Shown here: positions 3,905 to 64,000 of the stretch, piece after piece | How positions within the stretch are numbered: position 1 is the stretch's first letter | Layout of the letters: the number at the start of each line of letters is the position of its first letter | DNA from: Candidatus Jordarchaeales archaeon | GTDB taxonomy: Archaea > Asgardarchaeota > Jordiarchaeia > Jordiarchaeales > Freyrarchaeaceae | Reading direction: 5' to 3' | DNA length: 64,000 nucleotides | NCBI GenBank assembly: GCA_038889235.1 | Contig: JAWAHN010000001.1 | Location: forward strand, 631,459-695,458 | Program-made: the position numbers and the translations under genes | Notes under the pieces: model-generated | The model's input: only the letters and a program-made list of their open reading frames with translations | The model's database searches: none | What the model was told of the DNA's origin: nothing

Positions 3905-4705
3905 TCACCCCCCGGGTATTTTTTCTCTAAACATTGCTGCCCTGTTAGCTATCAAAGCCGCGATTACGCCTGCTCCAACCCCGTTGTCAATGTTAACAAC
4001 GGCGACTCCGGGAGCGCATGTTTGAAGCATCGTGAAAAGGGCGCCAACGCCGCCTCCTCCAAACCCGTACCCCGTGCTTGTTGGAACACCTATTACCGGA
4101 AGGTTCACGAGTCCTGAAACTACGGAGGGGAGCGCGCCCTCCATTCCAGCGACAACAACTATTACATCTACCCCGTTTCTGACCATGTCGGCAAGCGGCT
4201 TAAATACTCTGTGAATTCCTGCGACCCCAACGTCATAGGCGACGTAAACTTCGCACCCCATACATCTTGCAGTTAGCCTGACTTCTTCGGCTACAGGTAT
4301 GTCTGCTGTACCTCCGGTTAGGACACCTACCTTTCCGCCGGTCTTAGTCAGTTTGTAATCCGGCCTCCTGACGTAAATAGTTCCAGTTTCTTCTATCACT
4401 TCTAGCGAAAACATGCTCTCCGGAAACTCTTTTCTTAACAAGGACAACTGTTCCTCGTTGCACTTGGTTACAATAACGTAACCTTTCTCTTCAACAACTC
4501 TTCTAGCGATCTCAACAAGGTACTCTTTTCGCTTACCTTTAGCATAAACAATTTCCGGCGTACTCGAGCGGAGCTCCCTCTTCACGTCTATCTTGGCGAT
4601 ATTACCAACTTCCAGTATTTGAAAGAAACGAATTGCCCTTTCAGCTTCATCTAAGCTAATTTCGCCTTTAACTAGCTTCTCGAGGATCTCCCTTAACTGG
4701 CTTAT
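3905..4705 (-). CDS. larB: LarB-family PurE-like protein (nickel-pincer cofactor biosynthesis carboxylase/hydrolase)
   Basis: PurE-like core GGKVGVLTGGTADIPVAEEV...VIVVVAGMEGALPSVVSG preceded by a LarB-type N-terminal region (SQLREILEKLVKGEISLDEAERAI). ORF track begins at 4855, but that extension would swallow the divergent promoter; a GGAGGGAG motif is followed 6 nt later by in-frame ATA (4705-4703), giving 266 aa. Start is uncertain. Confidence 0.65.
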   Translation of the reverse strand: MSQLREILEKLVKGEISLDEAERAIRFFQILEVGNIAKIDVKRELRSSTPEIVYAKGKRKEYLVEIARRVVEEKGYVIVTKCNEEQLSLLRKEFPESMFSLEVIEETGTIYVRRPDYKLTKTGGKVGVLTGGTADIPVAEEVRLTARCMGCEVYVAYDVGVAGIHRVFKPLADMVRNGVDVIVVVAGMEGALPSVVSGLVNLPVIGVPTSTGYGFGGGGVGALFTMLQTCAPGVAVVNIDNGVGAGVIAALIANRAAMFREKIPGG

Positions 4706-4797: not shown

Positions 4798-5544
4798 ATA
4801 CAGGCAAAGATCGGAGTAGTCCTTTTAAGTGGAGGGTTAGATTCGACGGTAACATTGTGGTGGGCTAAGGAAAAAGAAAGATATAGTGAGATACATACTT
4901 TAACGTTCCTTTACGGTTCCAGGGAAGAAAAAGTCGTGAAAAAGGTTTGTGAAAGGCTGTCTTCTCTTTCCGGGGCCAAGAAACAAGTCTTCCTAGAGTT
5001 ACCTTGGCTCAAAGAGTTCTCCGCTAAAGCTGGAACAGCTTTGATAGAAGGAGGTAACCTGCCACCTAAATTAACTATTCAAATGCTTGATGATAAAAGT
5101 GCTGTGAGAGAGACGTCTAGGAGTGTTTGGGTTCCGGCGAGAAACCTTTGCTTTATAGCTATAGCTGCGGCGTATGCAGAGACGTTAGGTGGTGAGATCG
5201 AAATAATTACAGGCTTTAATAAAGAGGAGGCTGAAACATTCCCCGACAACTCTCTTACCTTCACTGAAAGAGCGAACGCGTTACTTGAAACGTCAACTCT
5301 CAAAGCTAGGGTCTCCTTAAAAACTCCTATTATACATCTCAACAAGAAGGAGATATGCGTGTTAGCAAAGTCGCTCAATGTCCCCGTTGAGTACACAAAC
5401 TCCTGCTACAACCCAATCGGCATAACTGAGGACGGGAAACCCATTCATTGCGGCGTTTGTGAGAGCTGCACGAGGAGGAGACGTGCTTTCTTGGAAGCCA
5501 TAGGTTCAGACCCTACTATTTACGCTTACAATCAAACGACTTAA
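4798..5544 (+). CDS. queC: 7-cyano-7-deazaguanine synthase QueC (PP-loop ATPase)
   Basis: C-terminal zinc motif HCGVCESCTRRRRAF typical of QueC; the PP-loop SGGLDS (KIGVVLLSGGLDSTVT) is in frame upstream of the track start (TTG 4855) with no ATG/GTG/TTG before it; GGAGG at 4785-4789 followed by in-frame ATA at 4798. Start is inferred. Confidence 0.7.
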   Translation: MQAKIGVVLLSGGLDSTVTLWWAKEKERYSEIHTLTFLYGSREEKVVKKVCERLSSLSGAKKQVFLELPWLKEFSAKAGTALIEGGNLPPKLTIQMLDDKSAVRETSRSVWVPARNLCFIAIAAAYAETLGGEIEIITGFNKEEAETFPDNSLTFTERANALLETSTLKARVSLKTPIIHLNKKEICVLAKSLNVPVEYTNSCYNPIGITEDGKPIHCGVCESCTRRRRAFLEAIGSDPTIYAYNQTT

Positions 5545-14744: not shown

Positions 14745-14907
14745 AATTCCACCTCACTTGCAGCGAGCGAACACTAGGAAATATGAAGTAGCAGTAATAA
14801 AAAGGCTTAGTTTAATCCTTGCGCCACGATATGTGAAGAGAATACTTATATACTTCTTGGAAATAATCTAAGATTCGCCTCTTTCAGTATAAAGGAGGGG
14901 AACTGAG

Positions 14908-15690
14908 ATTTCAGGGAAGAATCACGACGGAAAAATATTTCTCTTAGACCTTGACGGAACGCTTGGCTTGTCGTTGATACCCGAAGAGGACGCGATACTG
15001 GAAACGCTCGACTTCATAGCCAGTGAAGTCGCCAGACGTTTTAACAAAAAAATTGATAGGGGTACTTTGTACGACTTGTACGTGGAAACGAAAAAGGAGC
15101 AGTATCGCTTATATCCCCTCAACCCGAAGAGACATGACAAAAACCTAAGATGGGAGATGCTACTCAGGAAACTGGGAGAGAAATTGGGTTGCAAGATATC
15201 CGAGGAGCTTTTTGAGGACGTCAAGAAAGTTTACTGGAATCTCTTCGAAAGCAAAGCCAGGCCTTATCCAGATACACATGAAACGCTAGAGAAACTCATG
15301 GAGAAATTCAATGTAGTCATAGTCACCAACAACGATTATGCAGAAGCTAAGAAGAAGATTAAGCTATTCGGATTAGAGGAAGGAAAACACTACGACGTTT
15401 TGGTTACATCGGAGGATTTTAATGTTTGCAAGCCTTCACGAGAGTTTCTCGAAAAACTTATCCCATTCCTCGAGGAGAAGCTAGGGCGGAGGGTAAAGCC
15501 CGAGCACATAGTCGTGGTTGGAGATGACCCTATAAATGACATAGCTTGGGCTAAAAGCGCTGGGCTTAAAGCGATAAGAGTTAAAAGGGACCTTTTGGCG
15601 CCACGTGAACCTAACAATGAGAAAGAGAAAGCAGATTACGATATAGAAAAACTTTTTGAGCTGCTAGAAATTTCTGAAAAAATCCAATAA
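14908..15690 (+). CDS. HAD-superfamily hydrolase
   Basis: HAD motif I FLLDLDGTL lies in frame upstream of the track start (TTG 14968) with no ATG/GTG/TTG before it; C-terminal VVVGDDPINDIAWAKSAGLKAI (motif IV). Start inferred at ATT 14908 (9 nt after GGAGG) or ATA 14935. Confidence 0.65.
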   Translation: MSGKNHDGKIFLLDLDGTLGLSLIPEEDAILETLDFIASEVARRFNKKIDRGTLYDLYVETKKEQYRLYPLNPKRHDKNLRWEMLLRKLGEKLGCKISEELFEDVKKVYWNLFESKARPYPDTHETLEKLMEKFNVVIVTNNDYAEAKKKIKLFGLEEGKHYDVLVTSEDFNVCKPSREFLEKLIPFLEEKLGRRVKPEHIVVVGDDPINDIAWAKSAGLKAIRVKRDLLAPREPNNEKEKADYDIEKLFELLEISEKIQ

Positions 15691-15734: not shown

Positions 15735-17030
15735 ATGAGTGTCCTTGAACATGTTTTTTCTAAGATAGGGTTAGAGTTTGACGAGGAAATAGGAACATAT
15801 GCCCACGTGAAGACGAAAATTCCTCTGACGGTTTATTACGACGACGAGAAAGAGGAGCTGGTTTTGTTAGATCAAACTAAGCTTCCATTTGAAGTCACTG
15901 TGTGGAAGACTAGGGATTGGAGGGAGGCTGGAAATCCAGGAATAAAAGGGATGATAGTTAGGGGAAGCCAGGCGATAGGATGCGCCGCCGGGTACGCTAT
16001 GCTGCTTGCAGCTAACAGCTTTAAGAGTTTTGGAAGGAAGGAGTTCATGGAGAAGCTTGGTGAAGCAGCATCTTTCCTACGTGCTACAAGGCCTACTGCT
16101 TCACCTTTAAAGTGGGCTGTGGACTTATGTGAGAGAGCGGCGCGGAACGCGCTCCGGGATAAAGGGGTCAACGAGGCTGTTGATGCAGTGAAGGAAACAG
16201 CAGACTACATACTCGCCTCCGACTTAATTATGAATTGGTACTTGAGACAAGAGGGTAAGCCTTTCATAAAGGATGGCGACGTAATAATGACGCATTGTAA
16301 TGGTGGAAGCCTTTCGTCAACTTTCGGAGGACACGCACTTGGGATCATTGAGGAGGCTTATGCTGAGGGGAGAGAAATCATGGTGGTTGCTAAGGAAACA
16401 CGTCCAAGGAGTCAGGGGTACAAGCTCACAACGTGGGAGCTTAACAGAGCAGGGGTCCCGGTGGTAATAATAACGGATAATATGATATCGTCTGCTATAG
16501 AGAGGTTTGGGGTAACTAAAGTATTGCTTGGAGTAGACAGAGTGGCGAGGGATGGGTCGGTAGCTAATAAGATAGGTTCAGCAGACATAGCGCGTGTTGT
16601 GGCATTATACGAAAACATAGAGTTTTACTATGCAACATCCTACAGCACGATAGACTTAGAAACACTAGAGGGGAAGAACATTCCAATAGAGGAGAGGAGT
16701 ATAGACGAGGTCACTTACCCATATGAACTTGAAGCTAAAGACAAGAAAGAGAGGGGCATACTTTCAAGCAAAAGTCTAGACAGGTGGCCGCCCCGAGAAC
16801 TCCTCGTTCAAGGAAAGCCTGGAAGAGGACAAATAGCAATATATAATCCCGCCTTTGACGTCACTCCTCCCAAACTCATAGACTTGATAATAACCGACAT
16901 AGGTGTTTTTGCGCCTCAACAGATAAGGACGCTAACCGAGGAAAAAATAACATTAATGGTGAAAGAGCGCCTTGAGAAGCAAGGGATAAGCATGCCTAAA
17001 TATATAGCTGCCACCCGCAACGAGACGTGA
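15735..17030 (+). CDS. eIF-2B alpha/beta/delta-family isomerase (ribose-1,5-bisphosphate isomerase / methylthioribose-1-phosphate isomerase-like)
   Basis: 431 aa; LDQTKLP motif and overall similarity to MtnA/e2b2 family. Confidence 0.7.
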   Translation: MSVLEHVFSKIGLEFDEEIGTYAHVKTKIPLTVYYDDEKEELVLLDQTKLPFEVTVWKTRDWREAGNPGIKGMIVRGSQAIGCAAGYAMLLAANSFKSFGRKEFMEKLGEAASFLRATRPTASPLKWAVDLCERAARNALRDKGVNEAVDAVKETADYILASDLIMNWYLRQEGKPFIKDGDVIMTHCNGGSLSSTFGGHALGIIEEAYAEGREIMVVAKETRPRSQGYKLTTWELNRAGVPVVIITDNMISSAIERFGVTKVLLGVDRVARDGSVANKIGSADIARVVALYENIEFYYATSYSTIDLETLEGKNIPIEERSIDEVTYPYELEAKDKKERGILSSKSLDRWPPRELLVQGKPGRGQIAIYNPAFDVTPPKLIDLIITDIGVFAPQQIRTLTEEKITLMVKERLEKQGISMPKYIAATRNET

Positions 17031-17075: not shown

Positions 17076-17222
17076 GCGGGGGTTGCCTAGTGGCTAGCTT
17101 AAAAGCCCGCAAAAGGCGCTGGCCTGGAGCCCGATGACTGAAAGCCAGTGACCCGAAAACTCGCGTGGCTAACACGCGTAGCCGGAGGGGTCGCGTGGGT
17201 TCGAATCCCACCCCCCGCGCCA
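17076..17222 (+). tRNA. tRNA-Ser (anticodon GGA or UGA), intron-containing, CCA encoded
   Basis: Acceptor GCGGGGG/CCCCCGC with discriminator G and CCA; T-arm GTGGG-TTCGAAT-CCCAC; anticodon stem CTGGC/GCCAG with a 13-nt insert in the loop; long variable arm with a further hairpin insert; D-region insert. Folded by eye. Confidence 0.6.
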
Positions 17223-19668: not shown

Positions 19669-20775
19669 ATGAGAGAGGAGCGGTCAGAAATCATTTCTCG
19701 CTACTTTATCGCCAAGTACCCATTCACCGTTGAAGCACAGGCTTGGCTTAGGGAGAGGAAGATTGACTTAGACTTCCTGGTTAAGGAGATGCCTGCCGTA
19801 TTAGTCAGGGCAAGAGACAGAGTGATAAAAGCTCTTGAAGAAGGAGTTGCACCGTCGATTTTAGATGACCCTGAAGCTGAATTCCTCTCGTTCCCTATAG
19901 CAAGAATGATTGTCGAAATAGTTGGAGACCCATTTTTACGCCACAGGTTCGCAGTAGCTGAGGCGAAAAGAGCTCAAGGCTTTTTCAAGGAAGAAGATGT
20001 GGAAACGTTAACTGTCATAGCTACACGGACCTTCGGGATCGACTGTCAGCCTGTCAAGAAAGATATCAGTGGAAGAGTGTATTCGTTCAAAATTCACTTC
20101 GCGGATTACTTAAGGTATGCCTCCGGCTTTCATGACCCTTACTGGAAGCTCGTTAACAGGGTTCTTTCTAAAGGATATGTCTTTCTCGCTAAAGATGATT
20201 TTACGAGAATACTAGCTGGTGCAGTTGAAAAAAGGCTGCTTGAGCCACGTGAGCCGCCTTTGAAGGTGCCCTCGGAGATCAAACAAATTGTCGACGAGGT
20301 TGTGTCCAAAGTTATGGCCAGACGGGAGAGATATGTACTGGAAGAAGTCGAGGGAGGAGAAGTAGTGGAGGAGGCGTTCCCTCCCTGTATATCAGCACTA
20401 ATTCTAGCTCTAAGGAAGAACCAGCCTCTGCCTCATAGCGCTAGGTTTACTCTGACCTCGTTCCTACTTAGCGTCGGGTACTCTGTTGACAGAATTATTT
20501 CTCTGTTCAGTGAGATACCAGACTTCAAGGAGGAAATAACGAGGTATCAAGTTGAGCACATTGCAGGAATAAGAAGCGGCACGAGGTACACGCCCCCGAA
20601 ATGCGAAACTATGAAAACCTACGGGTTATGCTTGTTTCATGAAAAATGCAGAAACATAAGGCACCCCTTGGAATACTATAGGAAATACAAGCGCCACCGT
20701 TCTAAGGAGGCTGTGAAACTTGATTCCGGAGGACAAGCGGGTGAGGAACGAAATATTCCTCAAGGGTCTCTTTAG
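19669..20775 (+). CDS. priL: DNA primase large subunit PriL
   Basis: 368 aa; conserved Fe-S domain with FPPC, HIAG, PPKCETMKTYGLC motifs; 3' end overlaps priS by 56 bp. Confidence 0.8.
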   Translation: MREERSEIISRYFIAKYPFTVEAQAWLRERKIDLDFLVKEMPAVLVRARDRVIKALEEGVAPSILDDPEAEFLSFPIARMIVEIVGDPFLRHRFAVAEAKRAQGFFKEEDVETLTVIATRTFGIDCQPVKKDISGRVYSFKIHFADYLRYASGFHDPYWKLVNRVLSKGYVFLAKDDFTRILAGAVEKRLLEPREPPLKVPSEIKQIVDEVVSKVMARRERYVLEEVEGGEVVEEAFPPCISALILALRKNQPLPHSARFTLTSFLLSVGYSVDRIISLFSEIPDFKEEITRYQVEHIAGIRSGTRYTPPKCETMKTYGLCLFHEKCRNIRHPLEYYRKYKRHRSKEAVKLDSGGQAGEERNIPQGSL

Positions 20776-28810: not shown

Positions 28811-29099
28811 GCAAATTGATATGATGCGTACAAGAGTCATTTCAGAAATCATTGTAAGTATCTGAATTTCGGTTTTCTGACGTGTTTCATCGAAGCTACC
28901 GATGGTTGAGTAGCTAGCTCAAAGTAGTTGTCTGCCGGCATCATGGTTGTTGCATAGGGTAAGAAAGGTCAATGTTTCTTGGGATGGTGAAAACTGGACG
29001 CGATGTGATCCTCGAATCTCTTAACATGAAAAACACGAAGAAGAACACGAAGAGGCATAACATATAAAAACTTGTCGAGAAATACCACTCTTGAGTGGC

Positions 29100-29232
29100 G
29101 GTCCCGTCGCCTAGCCAGGAGAGGAAACTGAAAGGGCGCCGACCGGGTGGGCGTAAGCCTTCTAAGCCGGAATTCCCGGGTTCAAGTGTTTCCGCCTTTG
29201 GGGCGGAATTGAAAGTCCCGGCGGGACCGCCA
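29100..29232 (+). tRNA. Intron-containing tRNA (possibly tRNA-Arg UCU), CCA encoded
   Basis: Acceptor GGTCCCG/CGGGACC with discriminator G and CCA; T-arm CCGGG-TTCAAGT...CCCGG with insert; one fold gives anticodon stem CCGG[11-nt insert]C / GCCGG and loop CTTCTAA; D-arm ambiguous. Confidence 0.45.
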
Positions 29233-30225: not shown

Positions 30226-30754
30226 AAAATAAACACCCCACCTAAGGAGGGCGAGAAGAAAAAATAAATTTCGCGAAAAAGATGGCGAAGAGCACACTTA
30301 GTAGCTTAGCTGTTCAACTTTCTGCGGAATTTAACAACACACAGTGCAAGGCACACATCTTTGTGGCTGTTCGGTCGACATACTTTTCCAGCAGTCTACT
30401 GAAAGCCTAGAACTACCACCACTCACATTCAGCTACGCGCCTAAGTCACTTTGCTAGCGTAACAACCGCCAGTTCCGATTCGTCATCTCCTCTAAAGACT
30501 CACAATACTCTATCGCAGCTTTTTTCACTTCACCAGAAAACTTGTACAAATCTTCCAGTAAATTACTGGCCACGCACTTAACGGCCCCCTTTAACTTTTT
30601 CTATTTCAAGCGTATCTTGAAACACTCTTTTAAAGAAACGAACAAGAGAACATTCGGTTTCCTGATGATTTTTCAATAGAGAAGTCAGAATTTCCGTTTT
30701 GCCAAGAGAGCCATGTAAAAGACGACAGCTCCTCGACAAAACTTTCTCGTTAGG

Positions 30755-30870
30755 TGGAGCCCCGGGCGGGTTTTTCTACAGCGACTCGAACCCGCGGCCT
30801 GCGGCTTACGAGGCCGCCGCTCTACCGGTTGCCCGCCAATTTCAAAAAGACGCTCTGAGCTACCGGGGCT
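30755..30870 (-). tRNA. tRNA-Thr (anticodon CGU), intron-containing, CCA encoded
   Basis: Minus strand: acceptor GCCCCGG/CCGGGGC, discriminator U, CCA; D-stem GCTC/GAGC with insert in D-loop; anticodon arm GCGGC-CTCGTAA-GCCGC; T-stem GCGGG/CCCGC with about 13-nt insert after the TTCGAGT loop. Confidence 0.65.
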
Positions 30871-31109
30871 CTAATCCATTTTTCATGGATTGAAGCATAT
30901 TAATCTTTCCCATTTTTAACCTACCGTGCTTCATGAAGAGACCGATCTTGGTTCGTTGTTCTTTTTCGCTTTTGGAAGTGATTCCATTTTAGAACTGATA
31001 ATTGGTGTTTAAATTTCCTTGAGGAAAAGAGCTAAAAAGAGTTAAATATCTGTGTCTTTTCCCTTTTTTAGGAACCTTTGTTTTTTATGTCTTTTAAGGG
31101 TGAAGTGAA

Positions 31110-34392: not shown

Positions 34393-34443
34393 AAAGAGGG
34401 CAAAAAATTTATCTAAGACTCATCTACTTTCTTTCATGATGGT

Positions 34444-34554
34444 GGGCCCGTAGCTCAGCTAGGTAGAGCGGCAGAAAATGAACGCCGAAGCTCATAACCT
34501 GTTGGTCCAGGGTTCGAATGTGATAAAACGCCGAAAATCCCTGCGGGCCCACCA
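34444..34554 (+). tRNA. tRNA with CAU anticodon (elongator Met or Ile2), intron-containing, CCA encoded
   Basis: Acceptor GGGCCCG/CGGGCCC, D-arm GCTC-AGCTAGGTA-GAGC, loop CTCATAA, anticodon stem split by about 15-nt insert at 30/31, T-arm CAGGG-TTCGAAT with 19-nt insert before CCCTG. Confidence 0.6.
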
Positions 34555-34624
34555 CCATTCAAAATGTTAAAGCAAGCAATCCTAAAAGCTTTTAAATCCG
34601 TTTTCTATTCTATTTCGTGCTAGT

Positions 34625-34755
34625 GCCTCGGTGGTGTAGCCCGGCCAAATTTAATGATGCTGAAAGCATAAGGGGCTTAGGAGTAAATCCGCCCAATCGA
34701 CCCCTTGACCCGGGTGGTTAAGAGCCAGGGAATTCAAATCCCGGCCGAGGCACCA
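34625..34755 (+). tRNA. tRNA-Glu (anticodon UUC most likely), three introns of about 18 nt, CCA encoded
   Basis: Acceptor GCCTCGG/CCGAGGC, disc A, CCA; Glu-type D region (GTGTAGCCCGGCCAA); inserts in D-loop, anticodon loop and between T-stem and T-loop; anticodon depends on exact splice sites (UUC if intron is at 34/35; UAG or UAC also formally possible). Confidence 0.55.
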
Positions 34756-34882
34756 ATCACTTCTAATTTTTGACAAAGCTAAAGTTATTACAAGAAACTA
34801 AACGAGATTCCCTCTTTGTTAGGAGCCGCGAGAAAAAGTCCAAAATGTTCTGGAAATGGGCTTTAGGGAAAATATGATGTAA

Positions 34883-35020
34883 TGGCGCCGGGGGCAGGAT
34901 TTCCGTGGGAGGACCCCATCTCGAACTTCCGCCCTTTTTAGGGGCTGCGACCACCGGGTTAACAGCCCGGCGCTTTAGGCTACTTTAAGCGGTGATCTAC
35001 CTGGTCTGAGCTACCCCGGC
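34883..35020 (-). tRNA. tRNA-Asn (anticodon GUU), intron-containing, CCA encoded
   Basis: Minus strand: acceptor GCCGGGG/CCCCGGC, disc G, CCA; anticodon arm CCGGG-CTGTTAA-CCCGG; D-loop insert; T-arm region carries about 38 nt of insert and could not be folded cleanly. Confidence 0.5.
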
Positions 35021-35246
35021 TCATGTTTAGTATTATGCTTCGTGTTCTTAAATGTTTCTAGTGCCGCTTTTCTATACCTTGTTTATGAAGGTTGCACGCT
35101 TCTTTGCGGCTTTTAGAAAACGGCGGAAATGTTATAGTGGAGGTTTTGGATGTTGTGGTGCTTGCTATGCTGTACATTTAAAGGAAAACTATAAAAGTTG
35201 CATTGTTCAAGGTTTTTAGTAGCTTGAAGAAGGAGGTTTTTGTCTT

Positions 35247-41954: not shown

Positions 41955-43478
41955 TTATTCGGATATTCTACCTAAAAGCATACCCTCAACTCTAACTGGG
42001 ATAAGGGAGTAAGCGAGCTCTAAGGCTTTGGAAAGCCTGTGTTCACTCCCAGAGTAAATCTCCAAGAGCGTATCTCCCTTAGACACCTTATAACCTCTTT
42101 TAAACCTTAGAACAACGCCTGCACCTTTATCCGCCGGAGCTCCAGCAGCCCTAGCTATAAGTTTCACAGCTTCATTATCGACCTCAACGACATACCCGCC
42201 ACTTTCCGCCTTGACCGCCGCAGTATAGTTACCGACAGGGATTTCCTCCGGTTTAATATTAGGATCACCGCCTTGTGCAGCGATTATTTCCCTCATTTTC
42301 GAAAGCGCCCTACCATTCTCAAGAATGCTTTTAGCTACAGAGTAACCTTGTCCTACCCCGGCTTTGCCTCCCATTTCCAGGAGGATCCCTGCTAAAGATG
42401 TCGCTTTTTCGATTAAGCTCATGGGACCACTTCCCATAAGTGCTTCTAGCGCCTCTTTCGCCTCTAGAGAGGGGCCGACAGTATAGCCGACGGGCTGCCC
42501 TCCATAAGTGATCCCGCACTGGATCTTTATGCCTAGCTTTTTACCTATTTTTATGACTCTAGATGCTAGTTCTTCTGCTTCGTTCATGCTTTGTACCTTG
42601 CACCCCTTTCCCACCGGTATATCTAAAACCATGTTGTTCACGCCCACAGCGAGTTTCTTGGCTAGAATGCTTGCTATCATTTGAGGAGTCGGATCGACCA
42701 TTAATGGATGCTCTACTTTGATTATTATGTCGTCGGCTGGCGCTATGTTTAAGCCACCCCCCCACACTATGGCGCCTTTCACGTGTTCAACGATTTCTTT
42801 AAACTCGTCGATGGTGAAGCACACTGGAGCCAGAACTTCCATCGTGTCTGCCGTCCCGCTCGGACTTGTGATAGCCTTACTGCTGGTCTTGGGAATCAGG
42901 AGGCCTGAGGCGGCCACTATGGGTACTACTAGCAAACTTACTTTGTTCCCGGGAACGCCGCCGATAGAGTGTTTGTCGTAAGTTTCTTCGTTAAAACGCA
43001 ATTTTTCCCCGCTCTCCGCCATAGAAATGGTTAGAGCTTCTATTTCTCGGTCACTCATCCCGTTAAAGTATTGCGCCAAAATAAATGCCGCTATTTCGAT
43101 CGGGCTTAGCTCTCCTTTAACTATGCTTTGGACTATAATGGAGATTTCATCACGGGATAATTCTTCCCCCCGCATTTTCTTCCTTACATGTTCAAGCGCA
43201 GGAGTGGAGGGTGCTGTGTCTAAGATAATGGATTCACCGTCAGACAGGTTAATTAGCTTGCTTAAACGTTTAGGGATGCCTATCTCTCCCCTCCCCACCA
43301 TAGAATCGGAGAGGGCTACGTTAACCGTTAACTCACGCCCATCGGCGATAAGCTTAACCCTGTCTCCCACTTCAGCGTGAATTTCACTAGCGTCATGAAC
43401 GTTCATAACTATTGTCGCAGATTCGAAATCGATGTCTACGATGCGCGTCTCGAACTCTTTCAAATATGCAACCTCCAC
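41955..43478 (-). CDS. AMP phosphorylase (thymidine phosphorylase family, archaeal long form)
   Basis: 507 aa; N-terminal extension plus pyrimidine-nucleoside phosphorylase core (HSIGGVPGNKVS, TSSKAITSPSGTADTME). Confidence 0.75.
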   Translation of the reverse strand: MEVAYLKEFETRIVDIDFESATIVMNVHDASEIHAEVGDRVKLIADGRELTVNVALSDSMVGRGEIGIPKRLSKLINLSDGESIILDTAPSTPALEHVRKKMRGEELSRDEISIIVQSIVKGELSPIEIAAFILAQYFNGMSDREIEALTISMAESGEKLRFNEETYDKHSIGGVPGNKVSLLVVPIVAASGLLIPKTSSKAITSPSGTADTMEVLAPVCFTIDEFKEIVEHVKGAIVWGGGLNIAPADDIIIKVEHPLMVDPTPQMIASILAKKLAVGVNNMVLDIPVGKGCKVQSMNEAEELASRVIKIGKKLGIKIQCGITYGGQPVGYTVGPSLEAKEALEALMGSGPMSLIEKATSLAGILLEMGGKAGVGQGYSVAKSILENGRALSKMREIIAAQGGDPNIKPEEIPVGNYTAAVKAESGGYVVEVDNEAVKLIARAAGAPADKGAGVVLRFKRGYKVSKGDTLLEIYSGSEHRLSKALELAYSLIPVRVEGMLLGRISE

Positions 43479-43577
43479 GTATTAGCTAGCTTCTTATGGA
43501 AAACCAATTTTTTGGGGTATTTTGATAAGGTATTTATCAGTGCAAAGAAAAAGTTTTCCATTGGGGGTATATTCAGC

Positions 43578-63580: not shown

Positions 63581-63671
63581 TGGTGGGCGGGCCAGGATTT
63601 GAACCTGGGACCTCCACGGTGTCAACTTCGCCCTTTCTGTGTGGCGTCATAACCAGCTAGACTACCCGCCC
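63581..63671 (-). tRNA. tRNA-Val (anticodon GAC), one intron, CCA encoded
   Basis: Minus strand: acceptor GGGCGGG/CCCGCCC, disc A, CCA; T-arm CCAGG-TTCAAAT-CCTGG; anticodon stem CCAC[14-nt insert]G / CGTGG with loop TTGACAC. Confidence 0.65.
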
Positions 63672-63689
63672 ACAAGTGTAAAATGTGAT

Positions 63690-63828
63690 TGGTGGACCCC
63701 GCGGGACTTATTCAGCTTTTTGTGAGCCTTTGAATTCGCGGCCTCCTGGGCTCCCGCGGCCTCCGCGATGCCGACGCGCCTCCTTTTCGGAGGAAACGCG
63801 GTGCTCTACCAGGCTGAGCTAGGGGCCC
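63690..63828 (-). tRNA. tRNA-Ala (anticodon UGC or GGC), intron-containing, CCA encoded
   Basis: Minus strand: acceptor GGGCCCC/GGGGTCC giving the G3:U70 Ala identity pair, disc A, CCA; D-arm GCTC-AGCCTGGTA-GAGC; anticodon stem CCGCG/CGCGG with about 22-nt insert; T region carries about 40 nt of insert. Confidence 0.6.
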
Positions 63829-64000
63829 ACCGTGATTGAGAAAATAATTGAGGGCATTTAAGTATTTTTCGGGGGGATTTGAGGACAAGATAACTATTGG
63901 AAAGGTCTTGGAAGTGATTTCGCCTTTGGATTGAATGATTGATTTTTACAAGCTTTTTATGCCTTTTTAACTACAGTTGATGCTTAGTAATAGGGGGGCG

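Follow-up and report, generated by a model that had tools for sequence, protein, structure and literature searches.

A near-cognate AUU codon as the likely start of a HAD phosphatase gene in Jordarchaeia

Where does translation begin in a gene whose catalytic nucleophile is encoded upstream of every canonical start codon? This question is raised by a HAD-IA type phosphatase gene in a 64-kb stretch of DNA (hereafter the window) from a hot-spring Asgard archaeon, Candidatus Jordarchaeales. The first canonical start codon in the frame of this gene, TTG at 14968-14970 on the plus strand, sits 3' of both catalytic Asp codons (the DxD of 14947-14955), and a mechanical list of open reading frames (ORFs) consequently gives a product of 240 amino acids (aa) that is without both aspartates. 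An earlier sequence-only reading of the locus had suggested that the gene starts at a near-cognate codon, either ATT or ATA, after a Shine-Dalgarno-like motif. A start of this kind is supported by our comparison of orthologs, which favours ATT over ATA. We consider it highly probable, judging from the sequence evidence below, that translation starts at AUU 14908, that this codon is positioned by a Shine-Dalgarno motif on a leadered mRNA, and that the product is a HAD phosphatase of 260 aa. With this start, the complete coding sequence spans 14908-15690 on the plus strand, including its TAA.

The likely start region and its conservation

The frame of the phosphatase gene is closed upstream by TAA 14890-14892, which stands six codons before ATT in the codon listing. 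The Shine-Dalgarno motif AAGGAGGGG lies at 14892-14900, with its GGAGG core (14894-14898) 9 nucleotides (nt) 5' of ATT 14908-14910, and it includes a 7-nt match to the complement of the anti-Shine-Dalgarno sequence (AAGGAGG, 14892-14898). From the upstream stop to the conserved peptide, ATT 14908 is the sole near-cognate codon. It is followed by eight codons for an N-terminal tail (S G K N H D G K, 14911-14934), by an ATA at 14935-14937 that has no Shine-Dalgarno motif upstream of it and is most likely an internal Ile codon, and by HAD motif I (FLLDLDGTL, 14938-14964), in which 14947-14949 encodes the nucleophile Asp and 14953-14955 the Asp that serves as general acid/base. Neither the 25 in-frame codons of 14893-14967 nor any of the frames across 14860-14950 contain an ATG, GTG or TTG. 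As would be expected of a genuine near-cognate start, there is no canonical start that keeps the essential residues. On re-reading, the coordinates that the earlier reading had given for the TAA, the GGAGGGG (14894-14900), the ATT, the ATA and FLLDLDGTL were all right, and its statement that no canonical start separates the in-frame stop from the motif was true.

A gap without a start codon is unremarkable by itself, since the chance that 25 sense codons lack a canonical start is P = 0.25 under the codon usage of the window. What goes beyond chance, on the sequence comparison, is that motif I lies inside the gap, that AAGGAGG stands 9 nt before ATT, and that the arrangement is conserved in all Jordarchaeia orthologs. 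The spacing also agrees with that of other genes. Across the whole window, where we counted the GGAGG sites that precede a start codon with a long ORF, about 20 genes were led by GGAGG with spacers of 4-11 nt, mostly 7-8 nt, and the 9-nt spacer of the phosphatase gene falls inside this functional range. Shine-Dalgarno-led initiation is clearly the common mode in this genome.

We aligned the 5' regions of eight distinct Jordarchaeia sequences, including the window, which come from independent assemblies (JGI, ENA, Logan, and NCBI) and share 62-88% protein identity. AGGAGGG was invariant (8/8), and ATT followed the GGAGG core by 8-10 nt in every sequence. None of the eight had a canonical start codon at the ATT position, and ATT is present in the Sifarchaeum ortholog as well. 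Two of the sequences (L007 and L012) have an in-frame TAG four codons ahead of ATT. Because of these upstream stops, together with the TAA of the window, ATT alone, among codons that differ from AUG by at most one base, is able to open the frame. The alignment that the sequence-only reading had called for, and which might have exposed a base error or frameshift, revealed neither and found ATT in all eight distinct orthologs.

The pattern of change in the alignment shifts at ATT. Of the 76 columns upstream, nine contain gaps, versus none of the 60 columns from ATT on, and two independent 1-nt indels fall within the spacer between the Shine-Dalgarno motif and ATT (the window versus L001, and L007 versus L020). 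Across codons 2-9, positions 1, 2, and 3 of the codon varied at 3, 2, and 6 out of 8 sites each, with only synonymous change in five codons. Extended to codons 2-20, the counts were 7, 2, and 17 out of 19, and in the 60 upstream columns periodicity was absent (12, 13, and 12 out of 20).

More distant relatives also carry a tail ahead of the catalytic domain. The Sifarchaeum ortholog, which is 44% identical, has GGAGG, 7 nt, ATT, and then a similar peptide (…DKNSGEILVLDLDG; DKNSGE), and the Freyarchaeota ortholog, with a canonical GTG, carries a still longer tail ahead of strand beta-1. We take the N-terminal tail to be a feature of the family, given its presence in both of these orthologs.

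The gene downstream of this start is intact. In a Pfam search with the extended ORF, HAD_2 (PF13419) scored 66.4 bits (cut-off, 23.8) and Hydrolase (PF00702) 64.5 bits (cut-off, 26.4), both above the gathering thresholds for the HAD superfamily. In a protein search, a Candidatus Jordarchaeales metagenome-assembled genome gave an NCBI entry of 100% identity, and eight orthologs of 43-88% identity came from Jordarchaeia, Freyarchaeota, and Sifarchaeia. The sequence-only reading had regarded absence of the DxD motif as fatal to its proposal. The protein does have it, and the nine-ortholog alignment shows all four HAD motifs to be invariant, each in the form that defines the superfamily. Motif I (D14-x-D16-G17-T18) matches DxDx(T/V), with DLDGT at 14947-14961 and the nucleophile Asp ending strand beta-1. 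Motif II, which takes Ser or Thr, is T140-N-N (T140 at 15325). Motif III, which takes Lys or Arg, is K175-P (K175 at 15430). Motif IV, defined by DD or GDxxxD, is G205-D206-D207-P-x-x-D211 (G205-D206-D207 at 15520-15528). The intact ORF, the invariant motifs, and the concentration of change at third positions indicate, at the level of sequence, that the gene is under purifying selection and is no pseudogene. By profile search, the nearest solved structures are PH0459 of Pyrococcus horikoshii (PDB 1x42, the scaffold of the designed enzyme BH32) and its derivatives (E about 1e-14 to 1e-16). PH0459 shares the HAD-IA architecture with a helical cap; the similarity is distant, and the name of the entry gives no physiological substrate.

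Upstream of the gene, we found a candidate archaeal TATA box, TTATATA, at 14846-14852 on the plus strand. It is invariant in the eight aligned orthologs and is preceded by a conserved purine-rich AGAGAAYA; conservation extends over the whole element, AGAGAAYA-CTTATATA, about 55-60 nt 5' of ATT. Archaeal TATA boxes lie at a characteristic distance from the transcription start. From the position of the box and this general spacing, transcription is predicted to start near 14875-14880, and the mRNA would carry a leader of about 30 nt. In the mechanism that we propose, the 3' end of 16S rRNA would pair with AAGGAGG 14892-14898 and place the AUU, 9 nt further on, in the P site, where initiator Met-tRNA would read it by two of its three bases and so supply Met. 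The predicted product begins MSGKNHDGK-IFLLDLDGT and has the N-terminal peptide (M)SGKNHDGKIFLLDLDGTLGLSLIPEEDAILETLDFIASEVAR.

The leader might also fold. A pyrimidine stretch, CCTCTTT, at 14878-14884 on the plus strand can pair with the Shine-Dalgarno motif at 14892-14898, and RNAalifold retains six pairs of this hairpin in 8/8 sequences. The changes are only C/U opposite an invariant G, there are no compensatory changes, and the single-sequence z-score is -1.3; a weak hairpin in which CCUCUUU sequesters the motif may form and is a weak possibility. A small CUGA/UCAG hairpin around the AUU was dropped from consideration, as it is not kept in orthologs.

Alternative starts and public annotation

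Several points weigh against initiation at AUU 14908 as we describe it. The start codons given in reviews of archaeal initiation are AUG, GUG, and UUG only (PMC7531240). AUU in E. coli yields about 0.1-3% of the output of AUG (bioRxiv 10.1101/063800), so expression would be low. PGAP picked ATA 14935 in this genome and in four siblings, and the six orthologs that have a GTG at the corresponding codon may initiate there, instead of or besides ATT. The coding-like pattern of the eight-codon segment between ATT and the ATA or GTG is only suggestive when taken alone (Fisher p = 0.08). Conservation alone is no proof of translation either, because the entire 5' region, including the promoter, is highly conserved. 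Lastly, the function of the product is assigned by neighbourhood only.

The alternative that survives best is a start at the codon just before motif I; six of the eight orthologs have GTG there, whereas the window and L010, its closest relative, have ATA. This start would give a 251-aa product (MFLLDLDG...), alone or as a second isoform beside the product from ATT, and would turn ATT and the next 24 nt into untranslated leader, with the Shine-Dalgarno motif acting over a long range or inactive. Gene callers choose the canonical GTG in the orthologs that have it and, through PGAP, the ATA in this genome and its four siblings. A HAD fold can open only four residues ahead of its nucleophile, and the coding signal of codons 2-9 is, as noted, statistically weak by itself. 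Against this, the GTG is not conserved, and with ATA in the window and L010 a start at this codon still needs near-cognate initiation there, without a Shine-Dalgarno motif to guide it. The codon has no motif of its own and stands 35-36 nt from the invariant AGGAGGG, outside the 4-11 nt range of the other genes. The ATT itself marks the limit of the indels in the alignment, change is synonymous only in five of the eight codons that intervene, and the tail peptide is found again in the Sifarchaeum ortholog, at 44% identity. Together, these observations make a start at the ATA or GTG codon unlikely, alone or beside ATT.

A far more improbable alternative is that the missing start reflects an artefact or decay, whether a base-call or assembly error, a frameshift, a pseudogene, or a start at TTG 14968: although the window belongs to a metagenome-assembled genome and Prodigal-type callers do give the 240-aa TTG product, that product would be without both catalytic aspartates, ATT without a canonical start recurs in eight species-level variants from JGI, ENA, Logan, and NCBI assemblies, and the ORF is intact with invariant HAD motifs and no start on offer in other frames. 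We rejected a frameshift or alternative-frame start after reading the interval between promoter and motif I in all three frames, which are start-free across 14860-14950, and a sequencing or assembly error because the independent assemblies agree.

Public annotations of this gene differ among themselves. An exact look-up among NCBI Jordarchaeales accessions returned five entries of 251 aa (ATA start) and two of 260 aa (ATT start). The latter, MEM1728625.1 and MEM4587167.1, are PGAP records from sibling genomes and begin MSGKNHDGK.... Logan gene calls give 240 aa from the TTG start. Calls for the orthologs use the internal GTG (248-250 aa), a Leu codon in motif I (246-248 aa), or a TTG that overlaps the ribosome-binding site (265 aa). 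Automated annotation has thus registered, inconsistently, that a non-canonical start is needed. Standard gene finders cut off or misplace the start of this gene, most likely a non-standard ATT, in an arrangement shared by all close relatives examined. We searched the literature on archaea, Asgard and otherwise, for non-canonical starts and found none reported from Jordarchaeia. A ribosome-profiling study of H. volcanii set near-cognate sites aside (PMC7261190), and the description of the class Jordarchaeia makes no mention of start codons (PMC9723677).

Probable operon context and neighbouring genes

Gene order suggests a partner for the phosphatase. A ribose-1,5-bisphosphate isomerase-type gene of the IF-2B family (PF01008) lies 44 nt downstream at 15735-17030 on the plus strand, with an ATG start and its own GGAGGT motif. 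The two genes cluster in all Jordarchaeia loci, where the IF-2B-family isomerase gene stands 40-50 nt 3' of the HAD gene; the order in Freyarchaeota is HAD gene, PfkB kinase, and isomerase. The phosphatase and isomerase genes are probable operon partners and would probably be co-transcribed. Under the proposed mechanism, pairing a strong Shine-Dalgarno motif with a weak AUU would fix phosphatase output at a low level compared with that of the isomerase, which starts at ATG; the output is expected to be low because AUU is a weak start. Such an arrangement might hold a potentially wasteful phosphatase low within the operon, and we prefer a fixed low output to a regulatory use of AUU as the simpler inference for this gene.

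Family profiles do not place the product. The best NCBIfam match was TIGR02253 (CTE7), at 85.7 bits against a cut-off of 169.75, and the second best was NF053830, ribulose-1,5-bisphosphate 5-phosphatase, at 63.5 bits (E = 2.1e-17) against a cut-off of 330. As both scores fall under the curated cut-offs, membership was rejected and the gene is filed under neither family. In haloarchaea, a HAD hydrolase (Halxa_2271 / VNG_1202C) is a phosphatase specific for ribulose-1,5-bisphosphate (RuBP) and is encoded beside ribose-1,5-bisphosphate isomerase; in some genomes, that gene also lies beside a ribose-1-phosphate kinase (PMC9700705). TK2301 of T. kodakarensis likewise prefers RuBP (PMC11032457). The HAD gene of the window shares the clustering with the isomerase gene that marks the haloarchaeal RuBP phosphatase, whereas its NF053830 score is 63.5 against the 330 required.

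Tight linkage to ribose-1,5-bisphosphate isomerase makes this gene a candidate phosphatase of an Asgard pentose-bisphosphate route. From gene neighbourhood, we suggest, tentatively and with rather less than even confidence, that the enzyme acts on a pentose bisphosphate (e.g., ribulose-1,5-bisphosphate) or on a Rubisco side-product. AMP phosphorylase is encoded in the same 64 kb as the isomerase and the phosphatase (41958-43481, minus strand). Among the window ORFs scanned with Pfam, there was no Rubisco and no class II aldolase / Ru1P aldolase (FucA).

Beyond these genes, we note two predicted tRNA genes with introns, both obtained with the intron option of ARAGORN. A tRNA Ala(CGC) gene at 17076-17222 on the plus strand contains a 60-nt intron at a non-canonical position, and a tRNA Val(GAC) gene at 63581-63671 on the minus strand contains a 14-nt intron. 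A default ARAGORN run on the window found no tRNA, and Rfam at its gathering threshold reported only the Val gene; in the gene-free gaps, Rfam found nothing at E <= 0.01. Three islands, at 29085-29207, 30717-30879 (minus strand), and 63684-63859 (minus strand), exceed 62% GC against a background of 44%, and their ends resemble the acceptor, D, and T arms of tRNA, broken by insertions. We take these islands as probable tRNA genes whose non-canonical introns are large or several in number. Both ARAGORN and Rfam (E <= 0.01) failed to recognise them; we judged the island at 63684-63859 by eye, and the others were covered by Rfam at a relaxed threshold. Two further stretches of about 0.8 kb each (30298-31103 and 34393-35177) are without a convincing ORF or Rfam match, and the first of them holds one of the GC-rich tRNA-like islands.

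Proposed near-cognate starts in the window, and known systems

The sequence-only reading had counted the phosphatase gene as the third case of its kind in the window, after QueC and LarB, and these two cases also hold. The QueC gene (4798-5544, plus strand) reads TAA … CTGGAGGGGAATAAT-ATA, in which GGAGGGG is followed by 6 nt (AATAAT) and ATA 4798. Its PP-loop motif, SGGLDS (4828), precedes the first canonical codon, TTG 4855. The closest QueC ortholog (L023, 70% identity) has ATG exactly at the ATA codon, which points to a recent change from AUG to AUA in the window. Public starts for QueC are ATC 4810 or CTG 4783 from PGAP and TTG 4855 from Prodigal, the last of which loses the PP-loop.

The LarB gene (3905-4705, minus strand; NCBIfam equivalog, 248.7 bits) would start at ATA 4705-4703, 9 nt after GGAGG and ahead of a conserved N-terminal helix. 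Its ortholog in L023, which is 80% identical, has ATA 8 nt past GGAGG; eight codons before this ATA stands an in-frame TAG, and the interval contains no canonical codon. Public starts for LarB are upstream TTGs, so placed that the coding sequence runs through the Shine-Dalgarno motif and overlaps the 5' region of QueC. We sought QueC and LarB within ±10 kb of the HAD loci and they were absent there; the orthologs described here came from a separate metagenome scan.

A fourth AUH start (AUU, AUA, or AUC) is possible in PriL, the gene for the large subunit of DNA primase (19669-20775, plus strand), where ATC 19690 lies 9 nt past GAGGAG. In two orthologs (L017 and L019), there is no canonical start between the upstream stop and a conserved ATA-ATT-TCT that follows an AGGAG-type motif. 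The window copy also has an ATG, without a motif, seven codons upstream of the ATC.

A scan of the whole window for a motif followed by a near-cognate codon returned only the HAD gene, QueC, LarB, and possibly PriL. Applied to 20 kb of flanks taken from a sibling genome, with about 18 genes, the same scan gave no further candidates, so a high genome-wide rate is not established. The tally is three firm and one possible near-cognate start among roughly 80 genes, a small sample that may be selected for these cases. E. coli has two confirmed non-canonical starts, in infC and pcnB (bioRxiv 10.1101/063800), and the frequency here is far above that, with the same reservation that the sample is small and possibly selected for these cases.

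The canonical starts of the window are unusual in their own way. Among the approximately 20 GGAGG-led genes, about nine start with ATG, seven with TTG, and three with GTG, and PGAP calls for the 17 flank genes listed comprise nine ATG, five TTG, and three GTG. The share of TTG is unusually high compared with the 4.35% of starts that it represents in well-annotated bacteria (bioRxiv 10.1101/063800). A separate observation concerns Freyarchaeota. In 20.7 kb around the HAD ortholog on the SRVP19 chromosome (L021), there was one GGAGG-led start, versus 5-11 per 20 kb in Jordarchaeia loci, and on these sequences Shine-Dalgarno use seems to differ sharply between the related Asgard lineages.

These cases suggest, and do not establish, a lineage-wide habit of AUH starts in Jordarchaeia. 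In a broader form of this idea, Jordarchaeia and perhaps neighbouring Asgard classes would have relaxed start stringency at Shine-Dalgarno-led genes, with AUU, AUA, and AUC as a regular fourth class of start at the percent level. We regard this as possible and somewhat doubtful. Relaxed stringency would account for stable use within families (AUU in the HAD gene throughout the class, AUA in LarB of two species, and AUA in PriL of at least two species), and the AUG-to-AUA change in QueC would be one that was tolerated. If the idea is true, automated annotation systematically truncates or mis-starts a set of proteins in these genomes, and the cause could reside in aIF1, aIF2, or the initiator tRNA of a lineage near eukaryotes.

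The wider interest of the locus hinges on whether AUH starts are lineage-wide in Jordarchaeia. A class-wide AUU together with two or three AUA or AUC cases within 64 kb would rank among the clearest comparative cases of near-cognate initiation in archaea. The setting is the archaeal group closest to eukaryotes, and in eukaryotes both near-cognate initiation and its regulation through eIF1 and eIF5 are prominent.

The closest parallels to the proposed start are infC, which encodes IF3, and pcnB of E. coli. Like the HAD gene, both have a conserved AUU at normal Shine-Dalgarno spacing and an expected low output. Their AUU is read as Met by the initiator tRNA. The parallel has limits, as the infC and pcnB starts are confirmed whereas that of the HAD gene is predicted from sequence, and start selection in an archaeon would use aIF1, aIF1A, and aIF2 rather than IF3. 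Since the HAD gene encodes a metabolic phosphatase and not an initiation factor, the autoregulatory loop of infC has no obvious counterpart here.

Eukaryotes, and mitochondria and chloroplasts with AUA and AUU, also have near-cognate starts that are genuine and conserved and that tune output. In contrast to eukaryotic initiation, which depends on scanning and Kozak context, the codon of the HAD gene would be placed by its Shine-Dalgarno motif. Chloroplasts offer a further likeness, with one-mismatch codons serving as genuine, conserved starts that tune output (PMC9845219). Unlike the near-cognate starts of eukaryotes and organelles, those of the window are Ile-type codons only (AUU, AUA, and perhaps AUC) and never CUG or ACG. 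Set beside these systems, the start of the HAD gene most likely adds a new, conserved archaeal case to those already known of near-cognate initiation, here at AUU after a strong Shine-Dalgarno motif.

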